DNA from: a virus
Lineage: Duplodnaviria; Heunggongvirae; Uroviricota; Caudoviricetes
Strand: one strand, 5' to 3'
Virus record (IMG/VR): IMGVR_UViG_2711768042_000003
Length of the DNA: 39,964 nucleotides
Shown: positions 1,535-34,600 of the stretch, piece after piece
How positions within the stretch are numbered: position 1 is the stretch's first letter
How the letters are laid out: every line of letters starts with the position of its first letter
Position numbers and translations under genes: made by a program
Notes under the pieces: model-generated
The model's input: the letters and a program-made list of their open reading frames with translations, nothing else
Databases searched by the model: none
What the model was told of the DNA's origin: nothing

Positions 1535-4500
1535 TCAGCTGATACTGATGCCTGCGGTGGCTTTCTTCATCACCACAACCAGCAAATCACTGATACTTGC
1601 TGTGGGATACCAACCATTTACCCACCATGCTGATACAGAAAACTCCAGCGTCATGTGACCGCGACCAGCAGGCATATCAATAACACCACTGTAAACCAGC
1701 GTATTATCCAGCGCGGTACGGTTATAAATTTCAGCACCGTTTTTCTTCACTATCAGGCGGCATGACGAATAAGTATCGCTGTTCTCCCGCTCATGTCTGG
1801 CACCGCTGAAAGCCACCGCCGGAATAACAATCTGCCGGTCAAACGGCTGATCGTCATAAACCCTGACGGTAATGGTCCCTGATGGCCACCGCTCCGGTGC
1901 ACGGGAGTCCCGGGGGAAAGCTTTGCCCACCGTTTTAACAATATCGCCTTCAATCTGGTTGGCTGACAGTTTTCCCAGAATCCGGCAGTTCTGATTAATC
2001 GTGACATTGTTGAGCGTCCCGGAGTTCGCATTCACGTTACCGCTGATATCTGCATTTTTCGCCGTCAGCCGCCCGTCCGGTGTCAGGGAAAATGCCGGAG
2101 GATTACCGCCGCTGGTAATGGTGGGAGCCGTCAGGTATTTCAGGAACACTTCGTTCATGAATATCTGATCGCCCTGACCAACAAACATCGGCTTTGTGTT
2201 GCCATTCGCAGGATTAATCATCGCAATCCTGTCCGCCGCCAGCAGCACCTGACTCTGCATACCGTCAGGGGTATTCTCAATACCGGCACCAATACCCGCG
2301 ATATAAAGGCGTCCGTCCTGCATCTGCTGCAGCTTCACAGCCCACATGCTGTTCAGGTTATTATTTGTATCAACCTGAACCTTCTGTATCTGCTGGATTG
2401 CCGCACTCTGGTCTTCCAGTTTCTTATTGACGGTCTGCGTGATTTCATTACTGACATCCGTGATGGACGTTCTGATTTCCGCCAGGTCAGGCGCAAGCTG
2501 ACCGTTATCAATCTGCGTCCACAACTCCTGAGCCAGATGGGTTTTCCCTATCTCTCCTTTGAAAAAATTCAGATAGCCGGATGCATCATCACTCGGCTGG
2601 CCAACAGCCTCCACGAATGCCGATTTGCCAACGGTGTTCACACTGCGGATGTAAAAATAATAATCATGGCCCGGTTTGATATTGATACTGGCGGCTATCC
2701 AGTACAGCGCCGTGCCAAGATAGCGTGCTGTGGTTTCAACCTGCCTGATATCCGCAATCCGCTTTTCCGAGAACCAGAACTCAAACTGTACCGTCGGGTC
2801 ATAAACGGCAAGATGCGGCGTGGCGGTTATCTGAAAATACCCCGGTGTCAGCTCAATCCGCGACGGTGCTGCCGGTGCGGCAATCCGGAACGATACCGAC
2901 GCCGGATCGCCCTGCTGCCCCCAGGCATTTGCCGCCCGGACTGTCAGCCTGTAGTTTCCCAACGCCAGTTGCGTGAAGCGGTATGTGGTTTCCGTCGTCC
3001 GGGCCGTGCTGACCAGCCGCTCACTGCCGTCATCCGCTGCCACGGTCAGGCGAAGCATAAAGCTCACGCCCTTCACCACCTTCGGCGTGTCCCAGCGCGC
3101 CAGTACCTGATATTCCCCGCTGTCTGCGGTGACTTCGGCAGTCAGGTGCTGCACCGCTGGCGGCGTGACACCATTCACCGTGCCACTCTGGTCGCCGTCA
3201 AAGTGCGCCCCGTTATCCACGATGGCCTCTTTCTCCGGCACATGCTGCACGGCGGTGATGGCATACGTGCCGTCGTCGTTCTCACGGATACTCACACAGC
3301 GGAACAGGCGCTGACGCAGCATCGGCAGCTTCAGCCCCCACACGCTGTATTCGGCAACGCCGTCAGGAACACGGCTCACTTTTACCTTCACGCCGTCGGT
3401 GACGGACTGGACCTCCACGCTCACCGGATTACCCTGCCCGTCAACCAGGCTTATCAGCGTGGTGCCGGAGGATGGCAGCGTGATTTCACGGTCGAGCGTC
3501 AGCGTCCGGGTCTGGCTGTTCACCGCCAGCACGCGCCCGCCAATGCTGATCCCCGCATAGTCATCATCGCAGATTTCAATAACATCACCCGGTACATGGC
3601 GCAGCCCTTCTGCACCCACGCTGAAGTCCACGGTCTGCGTTTCCAGCAGTTCCGTTTTAATCAGCCACAGCCCGGCGCGGTGCGCCTGCCCCCGGCTGGT
3701 ACAGCCAAAGGCATCCATTTTCGTGACGTTACGACCGTAACGGGCAATGGCCTGCGTGTCCTCCACAAGCTCTGTTGCCGTTTCCCAGCCGTTATTCGGG
3801 TCAATCCAGTTCACCTCAACGGCATTATGGCGGTCCTTCAGGGAGCTGAAACTGTAGCGGAACGGCGCGCCATCATCCGGCATCACCACATTACTGCGGT
3901 TATAGGTCCACACCTTATCCGACGGCCGGTCCTGCACGAACGTCAGCGTCTGCCCGTTCCATACCGGCATACAGCGCATCGCCGAGCAGAAATCACTGAG
4001 CACATCCCACGCCTTGCGCTGTGTGGTCAGGTACGCATTACAGGTGATGCGCGGCTCCGTGCCACCAAAACCATCCGGCACCGACTGGTCGCAATACTGT
4101 CCGATGACATACAGCGCCCATTTGTCCACATCCGCCGCACCAAGACGTTTCCCCATGCCGTAGCGCGGATGGGTCAGCATATCCCACAGACACCATGCCA
4201 TGTTGTTGCTGTATGCCGGTTTAAACGTTCCGTCCCAGATACCGCTGTATTGCCGCCTCTGCGGGTTATAGTTCGACGGCACCTGCAGAATGCGCCCGCG
4301 AAGATGATAATTACGACTCACCTGCTGGCTGCCGAACTGTTCCGAGTCCACCTGCACGCCGACCAGTGCCGTGTTCGGGTAGCACTGTTTCACATCGATG
4401 ATTTCGGTGTATGACGACCAGAGCGTTTTGTTCTGCAGCTGGTCTGTGGTGCTGTCCGGTGTCATCCTGCGCATCCGGATATTGAACGGGCGCGGAGGCA

Positions 4501-5014
4501 GATTATCCACCACCACCGAGGCCAGATACTGCGAGGTGGTTTTGCCCTTAATGGTGATGTCTTTTTCCGTCACCCAGCCACCGTTACGTTGTATCTGAAC
4601 CAGCAGGCGAACTTCCGACGGATTCCGGTCCCCCTTTGAAGTGGTTTCCACCAGAGCCTGCACACCGAAGGTAAAGCGCAGACGGTCGATGTTTGCAGAC
4701 GTGATGGTCCGGGTGATCGGCGTGTCATATTTCACTTCCGTACCCAGCACCGTCTCGGATCCGGAGGATTCAAAACCCTCCGGCGGTGTCTGCTCCTGCT
4801 CACCTGCCCGGAACACCACCGTGACACCGGCGATGTTGGTATTCCCTTCACTGTCCAGCACCGGCGTACTGTTCAGCAGCACGCTTTTTAATCCATCCAC
4901 CGGACCTTCTATCGGTCCTTCGCTGATGGCATCGATCACACTCAGTAACTGCGTGGATTTCAGGTTGTCCTTCGCTTCGCGCGGGGTATGCCCCTTACTG
5001 CTGCCTTTACCCAT
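1535..5014 (-). CDS. J: tail tip / host specificity protein J
   Basis: 1159 aa, N-terminus [24 protein letters not shown] as in lambda J; position after I. Confidence 0.95.
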
Positions 5015-5074
5015 TCGTCATGCTCCATAAACGACAAAACCGCCCGCAGGCGGTTTCACATAAAACATTTTGCA

Positions 5075-5746
5075 TCAGCGACCAATCACCACAACCTGAC
5101 CACCATCCCCTTCGTCTGCCGTGCTGATCTCCTGAGAAACCACCCGCGACCCCACACGCATTTCACCGTACAGAACAGGCAGAACATTGCCCTGAGCAAC
5201 CATGTTATCCAGTGAGGAAAAATAGGTGTTCTGTTTGCCGTTATCTGTACTGGCTGCCGTGGACGTCCTGGCTTTCGGTGCCAGCATCTGAGCCACACCG
5301 CCGAGCACCATACTGGCACCGAGAGAAAACAGAATGCCGGTCATACCACCGGCCCCAATGGCTGTCCCCCATGCTGCAAGGGTGGCTCCGGCGGTAAAGA
5401 ATGATCCGGCAATGGCGGCTGCCCCCAGGACAATCTGGAATACGCCACCTGACTTGGCCCCGGCGACTCTAGGAACGATATGAATCACAGCGCCGTCAGG
5501 CAGATCCTCATGTAACTGCGCCGTTAATCCGGACGTGCTGACATCCTGCCCGGCAATACGTACCTGATACCAGCCGTCGCTCAGTTTCTGACGAAACGCA
5601 GGGAGCTGTGTGGCCAGCGCCCGGATGGCTTCGGCCCCCGTTTTCACACGAAGGTCGATGCGGCGGCCAAATCGTTGTAAATCCCCGTAAAGGCAGATGC
5701 GTGCCATGCCCGGTGACGCCAGAGGGAGTGTGTGCGTCGCTGCCAT
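5075..5746 (-). CDS. I: tail assembly protein I
   Basis: 223 aa, same length as lambda I; overlaps the K 3' end as in lambda. Confidence 0.9.
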   Translation of the reverse strand: MAATHTLPLASPGMARICLYGDLQRFGRRIDLRVKTGAEAIRALATQLPAFRQKLSDGWYQVRIAGQDVSTSGLTAQLHEDLPDGAVIHIVPRVAGAKSGGVFQIVLGAAAIAGSFFTAGATLAAWGTAIGAGGMTGILFSLGASMVLGGVAQMLAPKARTSTAASTDNGKQNTYFSSLDNMVAQGNVLPVLYGEMRVGSRVVSQEISTADEGDGGQVVVIGR

Positions 5747-16102: not shown

Positions 16103-19783
<3,681 letters not shown>

Positions 19784-19809
<26 letters not shown>

Positions 19810-20329
19810 TCAGCAACCCCGGTATCAGTTCATCCAGCGCGGCTGCTTTGTTCATGGCTTTGATGATATCCCGTTTCAGGAAATCAATATGCCGGTTATC
19901 CAGCTCAGGAAAACGTCGCTGCACCGACAGAGGAATACCGTCGAGAATACTGGATATTTCCCTTGCTATACGCGACAGCACGAAAGTACAGAATGCGGTT
20001 TCCACCACTTCAGCCGATTCTTTGGCATTTTTCAGTTCTTGCGCCGTCGCCTGAGCACGAGTCAGGCGATGGCGCTCAAATTCAAGTGTTCCGGGGTGAA
20101 GATCTGCCTCGCTGGCCAGCCGTAATTCTTCAACCTCCCGGCGCAGCTTTTCGTTCTCAATTTCAGCATCCCTTTCGGCATACCATTTTATGACGGCGGC
20201 AGAGTCATAAAGCACCTCATTACCCTTTCCACCGCCTCGCAGAACGGGCATTCCCTGCTCCTGCCAGTTCTGAATGGTACGGATACTCGCACCGAAAATG
20301 TCAGCCAGCTGCTTTTTGTTGACTTCCAT
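19784..20329 (-). CDS. Nu1: terminase small subunit
   Basis: 181 aa, N-terminal HTH MEVNKKQLADIFGASIRTIQNWQ. Confidence 0.95.
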
Positions 20330-20339
20330 TGTTCATTCC

Positions 20340-20540
20340 ACGGACAAAAACAGAGAAAGGAAACGACAGAGGCCAAAAGGCCTGTTTTCAGCACCTGTCG
20401 TTTCCTTTCTTTTCAGGGGGTGTTTTAAATAAAAACATTAAGTTACGGAGAAGAAGAACGGAAACGCCTTAAACCGGAAAATTTTCATAAATAGCGAAAA
20501 CCCGCGCGCCTTCCGCCCCGTAGCCTGCCGGATCGCCGGA
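20340..20540. other. cos region (cosB-cosN-cosQ equivalent)
   Basis: Immediately upstream of Nu1; lambda-like flanks around a 12-mer at 20507-20518; nested inverted repeats at 20358-20407. Confidence 0.65.
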
Positions 20541-20590
20541 AAGGACCCGCAAAGGTGAGAATAATTATCACTTGCATTAATATCCAGCTT

Positions 20591-20760
20591 CTTCCACCAT
20601 CGCACCGGACGGGCGACTATGAGGGACAAAACCGCGCACCATAAACGCGGTAAAAACCCGGTGTGCATCGTTTTTGATTATTTCCGCACACTCGCGCAGA
20701 AGGAATTCCCCGTCGGGCTACGGTCATGGTTAATGCGGAAATACGGCGACGATGCAGCGC
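20591..20760. repeat. copy 1 of a duplicated ~170 bp element
   Basis: About 90 percent identical to 21542-21710, same orientation. Confidence 0.75.
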
Positions 20761-20880
20761 ATGATGTGTCAGGCTTGAATACCTTTATCCGTTAAAAGGG
20801 ATATCAGTTAAGTTATCCCGTGCAGGGTATAAGCCATTATCAAAGCCACTCAGTAGCGAATGGCTTTTGTAATGGACTAT

Positions 20881-21477
20881 TTAATTAGTGATGCTGCGTG
20901 GCTTCATACAAATTTCAGAAATATGATTCTTTTCGTCCAAATGATGCTGGACATCATTTTTATCATCACTCAACAACTCTGCTGTTAATACAATCCCTGC
21001 TGTCTCAGATTTCCAGGAAATGCTGATATCCTGATCATCTGCATCAACATCATATTTTATCGAGTAAGGACTAAAGCTACGTCCAACGAACGCATCATTT
21101 ACCAGTACACGCCCACCCTGTCTGACCTGAAAGTCAACGCGCCCTGAAAGCTGATTTGCTGTTACAAGCAATGCCTTTTTTCTTTTTGTTTTATTGCTCA
21201 TTGCCACCAACTGTTCAGCCATCTCTCTTGTCACACTACCAGAAACTCTTTCTTGAATTTTCACAGAAAATTTTCTGGATGTAGTAGCATCGACATTAAA
21301 AAATCTGGATGTCATCAGGCAGTTATTAACAATTGGCATCAGCTCACTTACGATTGTAAAAAATTCCCGGTAAAGCTCATTTTGCTTTTCAACACACAGC
21401 TTTCCACAATCGTCCAGCTTACGCTCAAGAGCACTTAATCTTTCCATTATTGAATTAATTTTTTGCAACTCTTTCAT
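20881..21477 (-). CDS. hypothetical protein, AT-rich cargo gene
   Basis: 198-aa ORF with GGAGG RBS 6 nt upstream of the ATG; visibly AT-rich against GC-rich neighbours; no family recognised. Confidence 0.7.
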   Translation of the reverse strand: MKELQKINSIMERLSALERKLDDCGKLCVEKQNELYREFFTIVSELMPIVNNCLMTSRFFNVDATTSRKFSVKIQERVSGSVTREMAEQLVAMSNKTKRKKALLVTANQLSGRVDFQVRQGGRVLVNDAFVGRSFSPYSIKYDVDADDQDISISWKSETAGIVLTAELLSDDKNDVQHHLDEKNHISEICMKPRSITN

Positions 21478-21500
21478 CAAAACCTCCTGACAAAGATACC

Positions 21501-21518
21501 GTGCGACCACGGTCGCAC
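21501..21518. promoter_or_regulatory. centromere-like palindrome GTGCGACC-AC-GGTCGCAC (sopC-core-like)
   Basis: Perfect 8-bp arms, 2-bp spacer; one of five copies in the window. Confidence 0.55.
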
Positions 21519-21541
21519 GCTCCTGAATACATGCCCTGTTT

Positions 21542-21710
21542 CTTCCACCCTCGCACAGGACTGGCGAGCATGAGGGACAAACCCGCGAATCATTAGCGCG
21601 GTAAAAACCCGGTGTGCATCGTTTTTGATTATTTCCGCACACTCGCGCAGAGGAGTTCCCCGTCGGGCTACGGTCATGGTTAATGCGGAAATACGGCGAC
21701 GATGCAGCGC
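21542..21710. repeat. copy 2 of the duplicated ~170 bp element
   Basis: Direct repeat of 20591-20760. Confidence 0.75.
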
Positions 21711-21720
21711 GGTATTTAAT

Positions 21721-21738
21721 GTGCGACCACGGTCGCAC
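21721..21738. promoter_or_regulatory. centromere-like palindrome GTGCGACC-AC-GGTCGCAC
   Basis: Identical to the copy at 21501-21518. Confidence 0.55.
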
Positions 21739-21757
21739 ACGAGAAACAAAGAGATTT

Positions 21758-22069
21758 TTATGCTACAGAGGAACAAGCTGGCGGGTAATTCAGCGTAGTG
21801 AATACCGGCATCTCCATCTTGTATGCGTAATGATACTCAGCAGTTGCTCCAGCAGACGCTTTCCAGCCAGGAAGCATCAAAATAGCATCAGCACAACGAA
21901 GCATTGCAAAGCAAATATCCATGTATTCACGTTGTGTCAGACCATTAGGCAAAGTGGCTGGATTCAAGACAGAGTGACCATGTCGTGACAAACGATCTGC
22001 CTCTTTATTAAAGGCGTCACGATTAAAGTTCTCATATCCAGTCATTGGCCCGGCAATATAAATTTTCAT
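21758..22069 (-). CDS. DUF4406-like (nucleoside 2-deoxyribosyltransferase-like) protein
   Basis: 103 aa, N-terminal MKIYIAGPMTG motif typical of this fold; assignment by eye. Confidence 0.55.
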   Translation of the reverse strand: MKIYIAGPMTGYENFNRDAFNKEADRLSRHGHSVLNPATLPNGLTQREYMDICFAMLRCADAILMLPGWKASAGATAEYHYAYKMEMPVFTTLNYPPACSSVA

Positions 22070-22110
22070 TCACTATCCAACAAATTGAGTTCGTTTTTGA
22101 TACAGAGGGA

Positions 22111-22578
22111 TTAATTCGGGCATTGCGTCTTGATGTATTCCTGAAGCGTTCTCAGTGCTGTCTGGTCTCTGATGATTCCGTCCCGGATACCGAGAACGTT
22201 TCGTCCAGCAACTGGAGAGAGTTCGACGGTGGCATCATTGCCCATGCCGGAGGCGCTGGAGGTTTCGGCTGAGGATGGCACAGAGCATTTTCCTTTGACG
22301 AGCACCCGACCACCATTATCAAGCTTGCGCCGAAGAGCATCATTTTCAGCTTTCGCATCAGCCAACTCCTTCGTGTATTTTGCATCGAGCGCAGCAACAT
22401 CACGCTGACGCTGCTGCATGTCAGCGATGGTGGCGGTCGCCTGCTTCAGCTCACTGACTTTTTTATCACGCTGTTCTTTGTAGGCGATGGCGTTATCACG
22501 GTAATGATTAACAGCCCACGACAGGCAGACGATGATGCAGATAACCAGTGCGGAGATAATTGCGGTTACTCTGCTCAT
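22111..22578 (-). CDS. Rz: i-spanin Rz
   Basis: N-terminal TM segment and coiled coil, lambda Rz-like over the N-terminal half; start at MSRVTAIIS. Confidence 0.85.
22152..22358 (-). CDS. Rz1: o-spanin Rz1 (lipoprotein embedded in Rz in the +1 frame)
   Basis: [19 protein letters not shown] lipobox followed by a Pro-rich segment. Confidence 0.7.
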
Positions 22579-23075
22579 TGCTGCCCCCACAAACAGACTT
22601 CACGCTCAATCTCACGGCGAGTCATCAGCCCTTTCCATTGCTTACCGCCAGCATATGTCCAGCGACGTAGTTGATCACATGCACCTTTGATATCGCCCTG
22701 GTTGATTTTGCGAAGAAGTGTCGATGTTCTGAAATTGCCTGCACCCACGTTGTAAACGAACGAGTAAAGAGCACCACGCGTTGTTTCCGGTATATCGACT
22801 TTGATGTACGGGTTAATTTGTCTGGCGACAGTAGCAAGGTCTTTATTCAGGAGAGCTTTGCATTCTGCTTCGGTATACGTTTTACCGAGCATAATGTCTT
22901 TTCCTGTATGCCCGTAACATACAGTCCATACACCAACGATGTCTTTGTAGGGGTTATGTCTCACACCTTCCAGACCATCGTTGCCGCTCGGACCAGAGAT
23001 GAGCACAGATGCTATGGCAATAGCCCCGCCACCAATAGCAGTTGCGACAGCTTTGCGTAATGATGACTGCATCAT
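22575..23075 (-). CDS. R: SAR endolysin (T4-lysozyme-like, GH24)
   Basis: N-terminal Gly/Ala-rich signal-anchor-release segment [20 protein letters not shown] followed by a lysozyme-like domain. Confidence 0.85.
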
Positions 23076-23344
23076 ATTTCCTTCGGTGCTCTCTTTCCCA
23101 ATTCACCAATAACCATCGCCGTGGCGGAAATATTATTGGCATCAGTTTTATCCAATATGTCCTGCAATATCTTCGTGCGCTTCATCTGCTCGCGTTTATT
23201 GAGCCGGTATGTAAGTACACCGAGGATAATGCTGAACGCGACACCGATAATGAAGCCCCAATCCTGCAATGACAGGCTGGCAAAGAACGCAGTAAGACCA
23301 GCACTACCATAAGATGCGCTGCTGTATCGTTCATCCATCTTCAT
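23072..23344 (-). CDS. S: holin with dual-start motif
   Basis: 90 aa, starts MKM (Met-Lys-Met), two predicted TM segments, directly upstream of the endolysin. Confidence 0.75.
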
Positions 23345-23439: not shown

Positions 23440-24516
23440 TTACTCAAATAACTTTTTCACTTCATCAACTGTCTGAAGATAACGTTCACCCTCAATCTCA
23501 ATACCGATTGCCTGACGACCTAACTTCAGCGCGGCTTTAATAGTAGAGCCTGATCCCATAAAGAAATCGGCAACGATATCTCCGGGGCGGGAACTACTTT
23601 TTATAATATGTTCCATCATCGCTGCAGGTTTTTCACATGGGTGCTTGCCAGGATAATATTGCACAGGAGGAAACTCCCATACATCGGTATAAGGTACATC
23701 AGCAGTAACATGAAATGGGCGGCGCAAATTTTCATACTGAGCCTTCAAATCATCATACTGCTTCTTTACTTCCTCATAACGCAATTTCAGATCGCTATAA
23801 CGCTTTTCATGTTCTGAATAATCAACATTAAAAGGATATGGACACGGGACACCGAGTGAATCTGCCTTCCTGCGAAATAATTCGCATAGTTTATTAAAAT
23901 CACTTAATGATGGAAGCCGCCACTGCGAATAAGAAAACCAGTGCGAACACATCTGCTTTCCTGTTGCTGAATTAATGTCTGCGGCTGATATATCTAACTG
24001 ACGGCGAGCCAGCGAAAAAGCATCAATTAGTGGAGAAAAAATATTTTTTCTTAAATCTGCACATTTTGAAGCATAACCTGACTGACCTTTAGCATAACCT
24101 GACGCGCCGTAATGCTCTGCAAATAATATTCTTTCAGTGGCAGGAAAATAAGCCCTTAAACTTTCTTTATGACAACCGCGCCACATACCACTGGGTTTAG
24201 CCCAAATGATATGGTTCAGAACATTGAAACGGTCGCGAGTTAATAATTCAATTTTTGACGCAAGGCGAGAGCCGGTAAACATATACAGGCTGCCATTAGG
24301 GGCCAATATCCGCCAAAATTCTGCCAAAAATTCATCAATCCACCCCAAAAAGTCAGCATCGCTATCCCACTGGTTATCCCATGCGTTAGCCTTTACGCCG
24401 AAGTATGGTGGGTCTGTTGCAATCAAATTGACCGAGTTATCAGGGATGGTTTTGATAAATTGCAGAGAATCTGCGCAAACGAGTTGCGCGCCATGAATAT
24501 TAGTGGTTTTGAACAT
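23440..24516 (-). CDS. DNA N6-adenine/N4-cytosine methyltransferase (orphan)
   Basis: DPPY catalytic motif near the N-terminus, C-terminal FxGSGST AdoMet motif; start taken at MFKTTNIHG, upstream ATG at 24561 possible. Confidence 0.85.
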   Translation of the reverse strand: MFKTTNIHGAQLVCADSLQFIKTIPDNSVNLIATDPPYFGVKANAWDNQWDSDADFLGWIDEFLAEFWRILAPNGSLYMFTGSRLASKIELLTRDRFNVLNHIIWAKPSGMWRGCHKESLRAYFPATERILFAEHYGASGYAKGQSGYASKCADLRKNIFSPLIDAFSLARRQLDISAADINSATGKQMCSHWFSYSQWRLPSLSDFNKLCELFRRKADSLGVPCPYPFNVDYSEHEKRYSDLKLRYEEVKKQYDDLKAQYENLRRPFHVTADVPYTDVWEFPPVQYYPGKHPCEKPAAMMEHIIKSSSRPGDIVADFFMGSGSTIKAALKLGRQAIGIEIEGERYLQTVDEVKKLFE

Positions 24517-24650
24517 AGCTATTATTTTTTTGCCTGGGTAAGCTAACCCGGTGATGCGCATCGCGGGTGGGCTTTAGGTTCAGCCTATAGCTCTGGCATG
24601 GGTTGACCGCAGGACAAGCTGCAACTTGTCCTGCGCCCACTTTTCAGGCA

Positions 24651-24758: not shown

Positions 24759-24780
24759 CTGTGCGACCGTGGTCGCACAG
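24759..24780. promoter_or_regulatory. centromere-like palindrome, extended form CTGTGCGACC-GT-GGTCGCACAG
   Basis: 22-bp perfect palindrome 18 bp upstream of the candidate late promoter -35. Confidence 0.55.
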
Positions 24781-29557: not shown

Positions 29558-29783
29558 TTTCTTGTGCGACCACGGTCGCACCCTCTCTGATTTCCAAGTA
29601 ACGCTTAATCCAAAGATTTTCTATATGCTTATTACCTGGCTGATTTGATAAATACCAATCGGCAATTACAGACTGCTTATTACTATCTGGTCGTGTCCTG
29701 TAACCACAAGTTGGACACCAGATAACATATTCATTTCTTACCCCCGAATACCTTAATTCCGGCTTCGACGGTTTCCTGAACAT
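29538..29783 (-). CDS. small zinc-ribbon protein (hypothetical)
   Basis: CPTCGY motif; start taken at internal Met to avoid overlap; the longer ORF reaches 29858. Confidence 0.45.
   Translation of the reverse strand: MFRKPSKPELRYSGVRNEYVIWCPTCGYRTRPDSNKQSVIADWYLSNQPGNKHIENLWIKRYLEIREGATVVAQENENNAI
29564..29581. promoter_or_regulatory. centromere-like palindrome GTGCGACC-AC-GGTCGCAC
   Basis: Overlaps the 3' end of one ORF (encoding ATVVAQ) and the initiation region of the next. Confidence 0.55.
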
Positions 29784-31645: not shown

Positions 31646-34600
31646 ATGACATTAAACGATTTCTATGCGGATCGCTTTGGCAGCGATCCGTTCTCGCTAA
31701 TTGAAGCAGCACGGGATGAACTAACCGAGCTGGCACAGATGGCTGGTATCAACTGGTCTGCCTGTTCCGACAACATCCAACTCAACCCTCGCGGGGGTGT
31801 TGAGCGTTACTCTTCATACAATAAAACATCTCCAGAAGCTCTCGAAAAGAGCCTCAAAGGACGCGTAGAAATTTACTCCCGGCTGGAACACAGCAAAGGG
31901 ATTGATTACCCGTTCATTAACTTCGTCCATAAAGGCAGCGATGCTGGCTCATGGAGCGGTTTCTCCTTCCTGTTTTCTGAATATCGCCGTGAGCAACAAC
32001 GGAATAATGCGACCGTGGTCGCACAACCGGAAGAAGAACGGGCAAGAATAGAACGTCAGGCCGAAGCACGTCGTCGCCGTGAAGAACAAAAACGAATTAA
32101 TGACCTGAAAAACAACCAAATGGACCATGAACGTTTGCTGGGATGGCTGGCATTCCACAGCGCGTGGGAACATGCTCCTGCAGAAGACGGCTCATGGCCA
32201 TATGCGATTAAAAAAGGTATTCGTGACGTTTTTAATTCGTGTGATGTGCGTCGCGTGACCAGTCACGACAGCGCAAAATGGAGCAGGGGGCCAACCACGT
32301 ATATGGCTATCCCTCTGGCTCACCTGGACGGTCGTTACGATGGTCGTATTGTGGGTTGGCAGCGAATCGACAAACAAGGTGGAAAATACCAGACCAGCGC
32401 CGTAACCAGCGGCGATTTCGTCGGTGCCTGCTTTGTTATCGGTGAGCTAAAAGGGGCGCAAAACATCGCTGTTACAGAAGGTTTTGCTACTGGTGCATCC
32501 ATCTGGCTTGCCACGAAAAAAGATAAACGCTTTGACGCTGTGGTTGTCGCTGTATCCGCTAATAACATGGTTCATGTTGTGGAACAACTGGTAAACATGT
32601 ACCCGGCGGCAAAAATCACCTGCGCACTGGATAATGACCGGAAATCAGCCACAGAAGGAAAAGGGAATACCGGCCTGCGGACTGGCTATGAAATCTTATC
32701 GAAATTCAACGATGTCCGCTGCGTCTATCCAACTTTTGAAGACGATCCGCAAATGGAGTGCAGTGACTTCAACGACCTGCACAAACTGCGTGGACTTCGT
32801 GAAACAGCACGTCAACTGTTTGCAACTGCAAACCGCCTGAAAACCGGCACTGATTTGCTATCTCTGACGCTCAACCGCCTGAAGACAATTAAGCGGGATA
32901 ACCGTCGTACTTTTGCCAAAGAGCTGCTGAGAGCGGTGGATATTGGCATGCTAACCTGTCCGGTTCCTAACAGTCCGTCAGACTTATTTAACATGTTCTG
33001 CATCGTTCTGCGTGAAATGGGGCTGGAAAATATCTATCGCGCTACGGTAAAAGACCACATTGCCCGTCGCCTGAATAAAAAGTGCCGTATTGCCCAGGCT
33101 CCGCGCTCATTCAGCGAACGCATAACTGATCCCAATAAACGTCCTCAACATATCACCTATAAGCGTTTTGAAACTTCGGTAATGACCGATGACGTCCTGA
33201 AGTATGTGCAATCACTACAGGGGATAGTCATCGTTCGTGCTGGTATGGGTTCCGGCAAATCTACTGGATTGTTACGACCTTTAATGCATAGCTCAGAACG
33301 TGGTATCTCTGTTGCTCACCGTGTTTCCCTTATTGGTGGCCTGTGGGAAATGATGACAGAAGGAAAAGGTGTAAAAGCCGATATCCTGCACTATCAGGAC
33401 CCTGGCTATCAGGAAATGGCTCCATACGCCAGTAAACTGACCATCTGCATAAACTCGATTGTTAAAAACTGCTGGCAACCGTTGATGCGCCAGCACGACT
33501 ATTTTGGCTTTGACGAGGCCACGCAAGGGCTACGTGCCGTTCTTTCCGGTCGGGCTATGGAAAACCCGGTGGCTGTATTCAATACGTTAATCGACGCGCT
33601 GGCCAGAACGGAACAACACCCAATAATGGTGGATGCTGATGCGAACGATCTGCTGGTTGACCTGGCTGAACTGGCTATGAAACGCCGTGAAGAACTAGGT
33701 TTACCGGCATGGCTGCAGATCCACGTAATTGAATTACCTGTTGATGTTCGCAACCGCGAAACAGGTGAGCCAATCCGGGTTTTTTATACAGAAAAAGATC
33801 GCATTATGACCGAGGTGGTGAAAGCTGTATCGGATGGCGAAAAAATCATGTTGGCCACCGACAGCTCCACCTTTGCAGAAGATGTGACAGCCACCCTGAG
33901 AATGCATTTTCCTGGTAAGAAATTTCTGTGTGTAAACCAGAAAAACAAACCAGAGCCAGAAGTTGAAGCATTTACCAATCAACCGAAAAAGATGGTCAAA
34001 AAATACGACGGCCTGATTTATAGCCCGTCTATTTCATCCGGTGTGTCGATTGAGCAAAAACATTTTGACCGTCATTTCGGCATGTTCTGTGGTGAAGTTG
34101 TACCCAGCGACGCAGTGCAAATGCTACGCCGCGACCGTACAGCAAAAGAATTTATTATCGGCTTTGATAAAGCTCGCGCAAAACGTGAAACTGACCCGCA
34201 AAAAATAGAACGAGCATTCGCCCAGGCATTGCTTGCTACCGCAGGCATGAACGGTGAACTGACGGATGTCGTTTTCGATGGCGACCGTATATCAATGGGG
34301 GTGGCCAATACCGACTTTACCAGGATGAAAATTAAAGCAGCCGCAATTGAAGCGTCTGCGCGTAACGACTACGCCAGCAACATGATCTGCATCATGCACA
34401 GCGACGGTTATAAGGTATCGCCGCTGGCCACCGATTATGCTGCGAATGATATCGGTAAAGATCTGCGTAAAGAAGCGCGGGATATTGTGTGGGAACAGAC
34501 ACTGGATCTGCATCTCAATACAGAAACTCCACAAGAATCAGAGCGTGAAGAACTGCTAAAAAAACGCGCGCTGACGCTTGAAGAACAAGCAAAACTTGTC

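Follow-up and report, generated by a model that had tools for sequence, protein, structure and literature searches.

A probable deletion derivative of an accessory gene beside cos of an N15-like phage-plasmid, lying between two copies of a lambdoid late-region block and SopB-type palindromes

Lambdoid phages carry accessory genes (morons) between Rz and cos, of which lambda bor is an example; bor is driven by a promoter of its own, and lysogens express it. In the phage-plasmid N15 a comparable layout is formed by a DUF4406 gene (gene 57), the palindrome IR4, the last cargo gene and cos, and the slot holds a Dcm methylase (gene 58) and gp59. IR4 is one of the four SopB-binding sites, IR1-IR4, whose oligonucleotide sequences are given in Table 4 of PMC7205306 (citing Ravin & Lane 1999), a work in which SopB-mediated silencing serves as an assay; sopC of F and the N15-type site differ at position 4 of each half-site (PMC2910045). 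Here, we analysed the DNA of the IMG/VR record IMGVR_UViG_2711768042_000003 (39,964 nucleotides, in its whole length referred to as the window), and particularly an open reading frame of 198 codons, ORF198, which lies in the slot between the lysis genes and cos and is accompanied by two direct repeats and two palindromes. In our view, which we consider probable rather than secure, ORF198 would be a deletion derivative occupying the moron slot of an N15-like phage, the repeats would be copies of a resident block, and the palindromes would be SopB sites. Read in this way, the locus is an accessory-gene slot that has decayed; a backbone element in two copies and known centromere sites enclose it, and the whole reflects mostly ordinary phage mosaicism.

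The evidence for truncation comes from comparison with the sibling phage PhiR46_1, which is 99.3% identical across the region and longer by 833 bp. In PhiR46_1 the frame of ORF198 runs on to 286 codons, and an open reading frame of 149 codons comes next. BLAST aligned window positions 20330-20899 to positions 3001-3570 of the PhiR46_1 sequence (L002), and 20893-22110 to 4397-5614, with an overlap of 7 nt; the breakpoints of the 833-bp difference sit at a 7-bp microhomology, GCTGCGT. The tail of ORF198 (ITN-stop) is a remnant of the 149-codon gene read out of frame. As far as can be read from the two sequences, this comparison shows that an 833-bp deletion at the microhomology removed a C-terminal domain of about 90 residues together with nearly all of the 149-codon gene, so that the window keeps phrog_2571 positions 1-200 and the last 23 nt of the phrog_3054 gene. 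Since ORF198 covers only these 200 of the 291 profile positions, short of a full-length match, and since its other complete relatives are all of 276-286 residues (the 286-residue protein of PhiR46_1 covering positions 1-291), we regard it as the derived, truncated allele. Among the relatives, the cassette is found full, truncated, partial or absent.

The deleted neighbour could be assigned to a family of its own. The 149-residue protein of PhiR46_1, which by eye looks like a two-helix membrane protein, matches phrog_3054 (137 positions; function unassigned in PHROG) with an E-value of 8e-59. This family occurs in 488 clusters, as compared with 15 for phrog_2571, and is widely present without the latter. 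Its homologues of 74-76% identity were found in the PL region of P22-like and lambdoid prophages, between N and cIII (gene at 4001-4450 in L136-L141), where SieB, RexAB or pentapeptide-repeat genes accompany them, the kind of neighbourhood typical of superinfection exclusion. Because of this wide occurrence and of the other prophage setting, phrog_3054 is an independent moron and not an obligate partner of phrog_2571.

For phrog_2571 itself (291 positions) no function is known. Alignment with the relatives of 276-286 residues gives ORF198 an N-terminal helical hairpin (residues ~1-95) and a beta domain (~98-170), the C-terminal alpha/beta domain of ~90 residues being the missing part. One allele of the 286-codon gene (P0012) is frameshifted near M197, and in two others (P0136 and P0015) the C-terminal part is a separate open reading frame beginning at about M197; as other alleles are frameshifted or split around this residue, with the C-terminal domain encoded on its own, the long protein is suggested to be a fusion of two modules. 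Searches of Pfam, PADLOC and NCBIfam with the 198-, 286- and 149-residue proteins gave no meaningful match. In PADLOC-DB v2, ORF198 matched only DrmMII, not significantly (E 0.01, 12.7 bits), the 286-residue protein matched nothing, and the 149-residue protein gave a weak 'Effector' match (E 0.03-0.05). A profile search of the PDB with the alignment of the 286-residue family (A3) returned nothing.

When 1.84 billion cluster representatives were searched exhaustively with HMMER, one full-length representative and otherwise fragments were obtained; in the same search residues ~95-170 of ORF198 weakly matched small proteins. A profile of this beta segment finds 67 proteins, mostly of 69-74 residues, from E. 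coli, Salmonella and Providencia; residues 98-170 are 32-48% identical to the proteins of 69-74 residues, whose genes, in the contexts examined (E. coli and Salmonella prophages), overlap the Rz stop codon or start at most 24 nt after it. We infer that the beta domain of ORF198 belongs with these small proteins encoded directly after Rz. That post-Rz family (L142 4001-4225; L145 4001-4225; P0163-P0222) has no Pfam or NCBIfam model. With a deeper alignment, AF2 predicted a beta sandwich at residues 100-170 confidently (pLDDT 88-92) and the N-terminal helical hairpin at moderate confidence, and fold searches gave generic matches only; the AF2 model of the 286-residue protein, made from 6 sequences, was unusable (pLDDT 53.8). 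Two further candidates were rejected, namely a similarity of the N-terminal helices to the C-terminus of P0144, which was not significant, and N15 gp59 as a homologue of ORF198 (BLASTP E 2.3).

As to expression, a crude scan with a simple consensus found no sigma-70-like promoter upstream of ORF198 on the minus strand. Given the lack of a detectable promoter, the orientation of the gene with the late operon and its start 23 nt after a SopB-type site, ORF198 would most likely be made only from Q-antiterminated late transcription, as an accessory protein which, because deletion alleles are common, should be dispensable. Occupancy of the adjacent site by SopB could influence this expression. ORF198 resembles lambdoid morons such as lambda bor in its slot, AT-rich composition and variable presence among relatives, and differs from bor, which lies on the opposite strand, in being co-oriented with the late operon, in having no detected promoter and in a sequence unrelated to Bor.

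The direct repeats of about 90% identity, which an earlier note on this DNA had placed on both sides of ORF198, are real, and each extends 18 nt further on its low-coordinate side than claimed there. Positions 20573-20700 pair with 21524-21651 (128 nt, 87%) and 20701-20760 with 21651-21710 (60 nt, 98%), with a 1-nt indel between the two segments; each copy is of about 187-188 nt, and BLAST gives 92-93% identity over 172 nt, far above chance. The repeated core is the cos-proximal part of a longer conserved block. The boundaries of this block are identical in 86 unique IMG/VR contigs, and the ends of copy B are the points at which homology breaks in other phages, with several types of flank at each end (alignment A4). 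The block matches 427 phage records and is present in 4073 of the 5426 complete E. coli genomes, in up to 8 places per genome; in mEp460 and Ayreon it is single-copy and located downstream of Rz. Among 185,579 species-representative genomes it is essentially restricted to Escherichia (a pattern scan gave mostly chance matches). The resemblance of part of the repeat to the region upstream of lambda bor, suggested in the earlier note, was borne out: the most conserved 108 nt of the block (20654-20761) share 81% identity, over 109 nt, with lambda 46868-46974, a segment located 116-222 bp upstream of bor, between bor and lambdap78. The core matches the borD-ybcV spacer of K-12 DLP12 as well; it adjoins bor in the one case and borD in the other, and in both the block and the late operon are oriented to each other as in the window. 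The N15 genome does not contain it. This pattern of conservation shows, to all appearances, that the repeats represent one resident block of Escherichia lambdoid phages, situated downstream of the lysis genes and present here twice.

Beyond Escherichia, the block was seen at 88-92% identity on contigs assigned to Pseudomonas yangonensis (L170, 351 bp), Thiomicrorhabdus heinhorstiae (L178, 468 bp), a Nanosynbacter metagenome-assembled genome (L157, 4 kb) and a soil Proteobacteria metagenome-assembled genome (L204, 92.5 kb). On the two contigs shorter than 500 bp it most likely represents assembly contamination.

The palindromes noted earlier are indeed present beside the repeat on the promoter side of ORF198, where, by their sequence, they are N15-type centromere sites and not promoter elements. 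They flank repeat copy B and stand 220 bp apart, with the 187-nt core between them. A 16-18-bp palindromic pattern, GTGCGACC-NN-GGTCGCAC, was matched at five places in the window, with 0.02 expected by chance; four matches, including the two beside copy B, are exact; the one at 32007 has a single mismatch, and so has its N15 counterpart inside repA. The N15 sites lie within repA (IR1), after Q (IR2), before the late methylase region (IR3) and between genes 58 and 59 before cos (IR4, 45561). Those of the window occupy positions equivalent to these four and share the 18-bp sequence GTGCGACCACGGTCGCAC; the difference is in number, five as compared with four, the counterpart of IR4 being doubled. 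Both the sequence and the placement show, as far as such comparison reaches, that the palindromes are N15-type SopB centromere sites. The genes sopA and sopB are not in the window; the ParB protein of PhiR46_1 is 75.6% identical to N15 SopB.

The relatives also suggest how the two copies of the core came to stand on both sides of ORF198. In two related contigs (L009 and L010) the order is DUF4406 gene, IR site, a 280-codon gene, the 149-codon gene, block, IR site and cos, and in two others (L006 and L007) it is Rz, core, IR site, a 276-codon gene and cos, with a single copy of the core; in many N15-like contigs the IR site is found about 16 nt after the core. The window and PhiR46_1 have the order DUF4406 gene, IR site, core, IR site, gene (followed in PhiR46_1 by the 149-codon gene), block and cos. 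The window thus appears to be a composite of arrangements which bear the unit made of the core and an IR site on different sides of the cargo. Since both single-copy arrangements exist in relatives, the duplication would have arisen by recombination between phage genomes of these two kinds, and homologous or illegitimate recombination between them is its simplest origin. Being present in so many phages, the core may also act as a homology patch for module shuffling. The layout as a whole is syntenic with that of N15 genes 57-59, with the difference that the window holds no Dcm gene and that the N15 slot is filled with genes unrelated to ORF198.

Several observations weigh against the interpretation of ORF198 as a decayed gene within such a mosaic. 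The exact 198-residue sequence occurs on 495 contigs, as compared with at most 29 for any full-length variant listed, and it is carried also by other linear plasmids of about 46 kb (e.g. pPEC1013-3) and by H61 and H62; moreover, the cut falls at a module boundary, the same at which other alleles are split or frameshifted. Because the truncated allele outnumbers the full-length ones and ends at such a boundary, its product may be functional rather than a relic. The simple promoter scan could have missed a real promoter. The abundance of the allele and the position of its end agree with the proposal of the earlier note, according to which ORF198 is an intact, functional gene of lysogenic conversion whose role in exclusion or defence is as yet undescribed, brought in as a cassette by recombination at the flanking repeats. 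So do the company of SieB, RexAB and pentapeptide-repeat genes kept by phrog_3054 homologues, the location in the moron slot, and the G+C content, which at 0.38-0.41 in ORF198 is below that of the terminase genes (0.50-0.56) and of the DUF4406, Rz and lysozyme genes (0.44-0.54). The AT-rich open reading frame, its strong ribosome-binding site (AGGAGG, 5 nt before the ATG) and the assignment to the cos-to-lysis slot, with which the flanking genes agree, had all been described correctly. However, the gene is not intact, being a 3'-truncated remnant of the 286-codon gene; the candidate membrane partner is gone, and the numbers of clusters given above indicate that the two families form no obligate pair. 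Neither Pfam nor PADLOC nor NCBIfam provides a link to defence, no promoter of its own was detected, the homologues of the beta domain are encoded directly after Rz, and the repeats are part of the phage backbone rather than of the cassette. Intact cargo of this kind is in our opinion unlikely; our searches gave no support to a defence role for the 198-residue remnant, which it may nonetheless have. It was right that the protein falls into no curated family with a function, and the match to phrog_2571, over a truncated length, has to be added; similarly, the region is a recombination mosaic, as had been proposed, the repeats being a resident block and not the ends of a cassette. Comparison across relatives showed variable presence of the cassette, and a single copy of the block on one side of it or the other.

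Another interpretation would take the ORF198 family for late proteins associated with lysis or the envelope, that is for an elaborated version of the small post-Rz protein serving the lytic programme and not for cargo. The profile and structure searches, which found no functional match, did reveal the homology between the beta domain and the post-Rz proteins, and this homology, together with the late-operon orientation and the lack of a detected promoter, speaks for such an interpretation; it also touches in part on what the earlier note had named as fatal to its own proposal, a conserved virion or lysis component, although a part of those proteins in lysis would be only putative. On the other side, no function is known for the family, lysis by lambda or N15 is not known to require such a gene, the unrelated genes 58 and 59 fill this place in N15, deletion alleles are common, and with one full-length representative in the whole HMMER search the full-length family is very narrow. 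We judge a part in lysis or in the envelope improbable as well. Far less probable still, and largely refuted, is the idea that the repeats are ends of a mobile element or of a site-specific cassette (att- or transposon-like), or that they encode a protein of 58 residues. Direct repeats that bracket a gene of foreign composition do invite it, and the 58-codon open reading frame inside copy A is annotated in PhiR46_1 and called as a gene in L006. Nevertheless, the block occupies the same position, as a single copy, in hundreds of phages without the cassette, in relatives the cassette is accompanied by one copy only, which may stand on either side, and there is no transposase or integrase gene near the cassette among the genes of the window. 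The 58-codon frame was rejected as coding: copy B and about 27 of 72 unique homologues do not keep it intact, variation shows no excess at the third codon position (0.149, 0.134 and 0.135 for the three positions), nothing in Pfam or PHROG matches it, and it is probably not a gene. A deletion derivative flanked by copies of a resident block and by SopB sites is thus the reading that we retain.

A separate problem is the possibility that the conserved core acts as RNA. RNAalifold gave -40 kcal/mol for the late strand and -18.5 for the opposite one, with a fold that consists of a three-tier stem-loop (GYAUCGU/ACGAUGC, UAUUYCCGC/GCGGRAAUA and inner hairpins) followed by a 3' hairpin; since G-U pairs are frequent, the fold is strand-specific. 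In an alignment of 65 sequences, 98.9% of the cells were paired, as compared with 27-61% when the partners were slid, and compensatory changes were seen at 6 pairs in 47 cells, a result reached by none of 500 shuffles. One pair of the 3' hairpin is U-A in 33 sequences and G-C in 27, and in the second stem compensatory changes are found in lambda and in the window. These data are consistent with a 187-nt core that would fold as a conserved stem-loop structure on the late transcript. Against it, single-sequence folding of either copy was no better than that of shuffled sequences (z = -0.74 and -0.98), and because of this it is covariation that has to carry the case for a structure; the covariation was scored among closely related sequences, almost all from Escherichia, on a structure derived from the same alignment, and the available core sequences are too alike to add covariation to a covariance model.

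Rfam contained no relevant match at E ≤1 for positions 20000-22500 or at E ≤10 for positions 20555-20885; the matches seen, to three eukaryotic small-RNA families and Leu_leader, were at chance level and far below the gathering scores. A check of the literature disclosed no known small RNA at the position of the block, as the Pas small RNAs adjoin Q and the holin/lysozyme region and do not lie downstream of Rz; likewise, Rfam includes families for AgvB, AsxR, STnc100 and Esr41, and none of them matched the block. A literature search for a small RNA at borD-ybcV returned nothing relevant. We put forward only tentatively, as a possibility with the balance rather against it, that the core is an undescribed structured cis-acting RNA of the lambdoid late operon, for instance one acting at the 3' end of the lysis transcript in processing, stability or termination.

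The surroundings of ORF198 agree with the origin assumed above. Over positions 20330-22110 the window shows 100% identity to Escherichia phage YDC107_1, a phage classified in Ravinvirus, the genus that includes N15; a homologue of TelN, the N15 protelomerase, is encoded in the window (76% identity), and an open reading frame of the size of RepA is present. The source of the window is, judging by these similarities, an N15-like linear phage-plasmid. All its late genes are on the minus strand (Table 1). As Nu1 and terminase A are placed on one side of ORF198, and the DUF4406, Rz, lysozyme and holin genes on the other, the assignment of the cos-to-lysis slot is correct, and the locus belongs to the variable slot in which accessory genes (morons) are carried between the lysis cassette and cos. 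The putative cosN was located by homology, with cosB and Nu1 at coordinates below it; the 3' half of the deduced cohesive end, GGGCGGAAGGCG, is unlike those of lambda (GGGCGGCGACCT) and N15 (GGGCGGCGTCCG). A HicA/HicB toxin-antitoxin pair lies between the late methylase and holin genes of a related N15-like contig (L006, 2238-2876), in another variable cargo slot. In the GenBank record of YDC107_1 (L012, CP025712.1), repA, gp36, BRO, the protelomerase gene and others occur twice at ~28000-46300, mirrored around the protelomerase, as if the assembly had been read through the hairpin telomere; this record has no sop genes.

Table 1. Positions of ORF198, the repeats, the palindromes and neighbouring late genes in the window
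Feature	Position	Strand	Basis or remark
ORF198, apparently truncated phrog_2571 gene, 198 aa, ATG start	20881-21477	-	list of open reading frames; phrog_2571 E 9e-108
Shine-Dalgarno AGGAGG, 5 nt 5' of the ORF198 ATG	21483-21488	-	read from sequence
Last 23 nt of the apparently deleted 149-aa gene (phrog_3054), including the microhomology GCTGCGT (20893-20899)	20877-20899	-	BLAST against PhiR46_1; translations of open reading frames
Repeat copy A, full conserved block of ~290-300 bp	20573-20873	-	conservation limits ~20580 and ~20873; core 20573-20760 is the duplicated part and candidate structured RNA
Repeat copy B, 187-nt core only	21524-21710	-	repeat search; ends are those of the conserved core
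58-aa open reading frame inside copy A, antisense to the late operon, probably not coding	20619-20795	+	annotated as a gene in some records
IR4b, palindrome GTGCGACCACGGTCGCAC	21501-21518	.	identical to N15 IR1 and IR4; also scored as a terminator-like hairpin in a terminator scan
IR4a, palindrome GTGCGACCACGGTCGCAC, second copy	21721-21738	.	repeat search; N15 has a single IR4 at the equivalent position
Remaining IR sites of the window	24761-24778; 29564-29581; 32007-32024	.	pattern match; late and replication regions
DNA methylase	23440-24561	-	late region
Holin	23072-23344	-	lysis gene
Lysozyme	22575-23075	-	lysis gene
Rz	22111-22590	-	lysis gene
DUF4406 gene, N15 gp57 homologue	21758-22069	-	Pfam PF14359 E 3.7e-34; 82.7% identity to N15 gp57; upstream late-operon neighbour of ORF198
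Putative cosN cohesive end, GGGCGGAAGGCG on the late strand	20508-20519	-	alignment to N15 (GGGCGGCGTCCG) and lambda ends; homology only
Nu1	19784-20329	-	terminase side of cos
Terminase A	17884-19809	-	after Nu1

Regarded as a gene for cargo or defence, ORF198 matters little: it encodes a hypothetical protein of truncated length, the variable slot is well known, and the palindromes beside it have already been described for N15. Its relatives are of more use, since PhiR46_1, in which the two-gene module is complete, and YDC107_1, which bears the deletion, form a natural, nearly identical pair for studying the function of phrog_2571 and phrog_3054, for example in exclusion, and the duplicated SopB centromere site could serve for studies of centromere dosage and of the effects of SopB on neighbouring late genes. 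The most interesting residue of this analysis may be the conserved core, perhaps an undescribed structured RNA of lambdoid late transcripts. The widespread, unannotated block downstream of the lambdoid lysis genes could be a real RNA element of lambda-like phages; if so, an element carried by phage lambda and by about three quarters of the complete E. coli genomes would be without an Rfam family, and its constant core would provide a preferred crossover point for the exchange of accessory genes beside cos.

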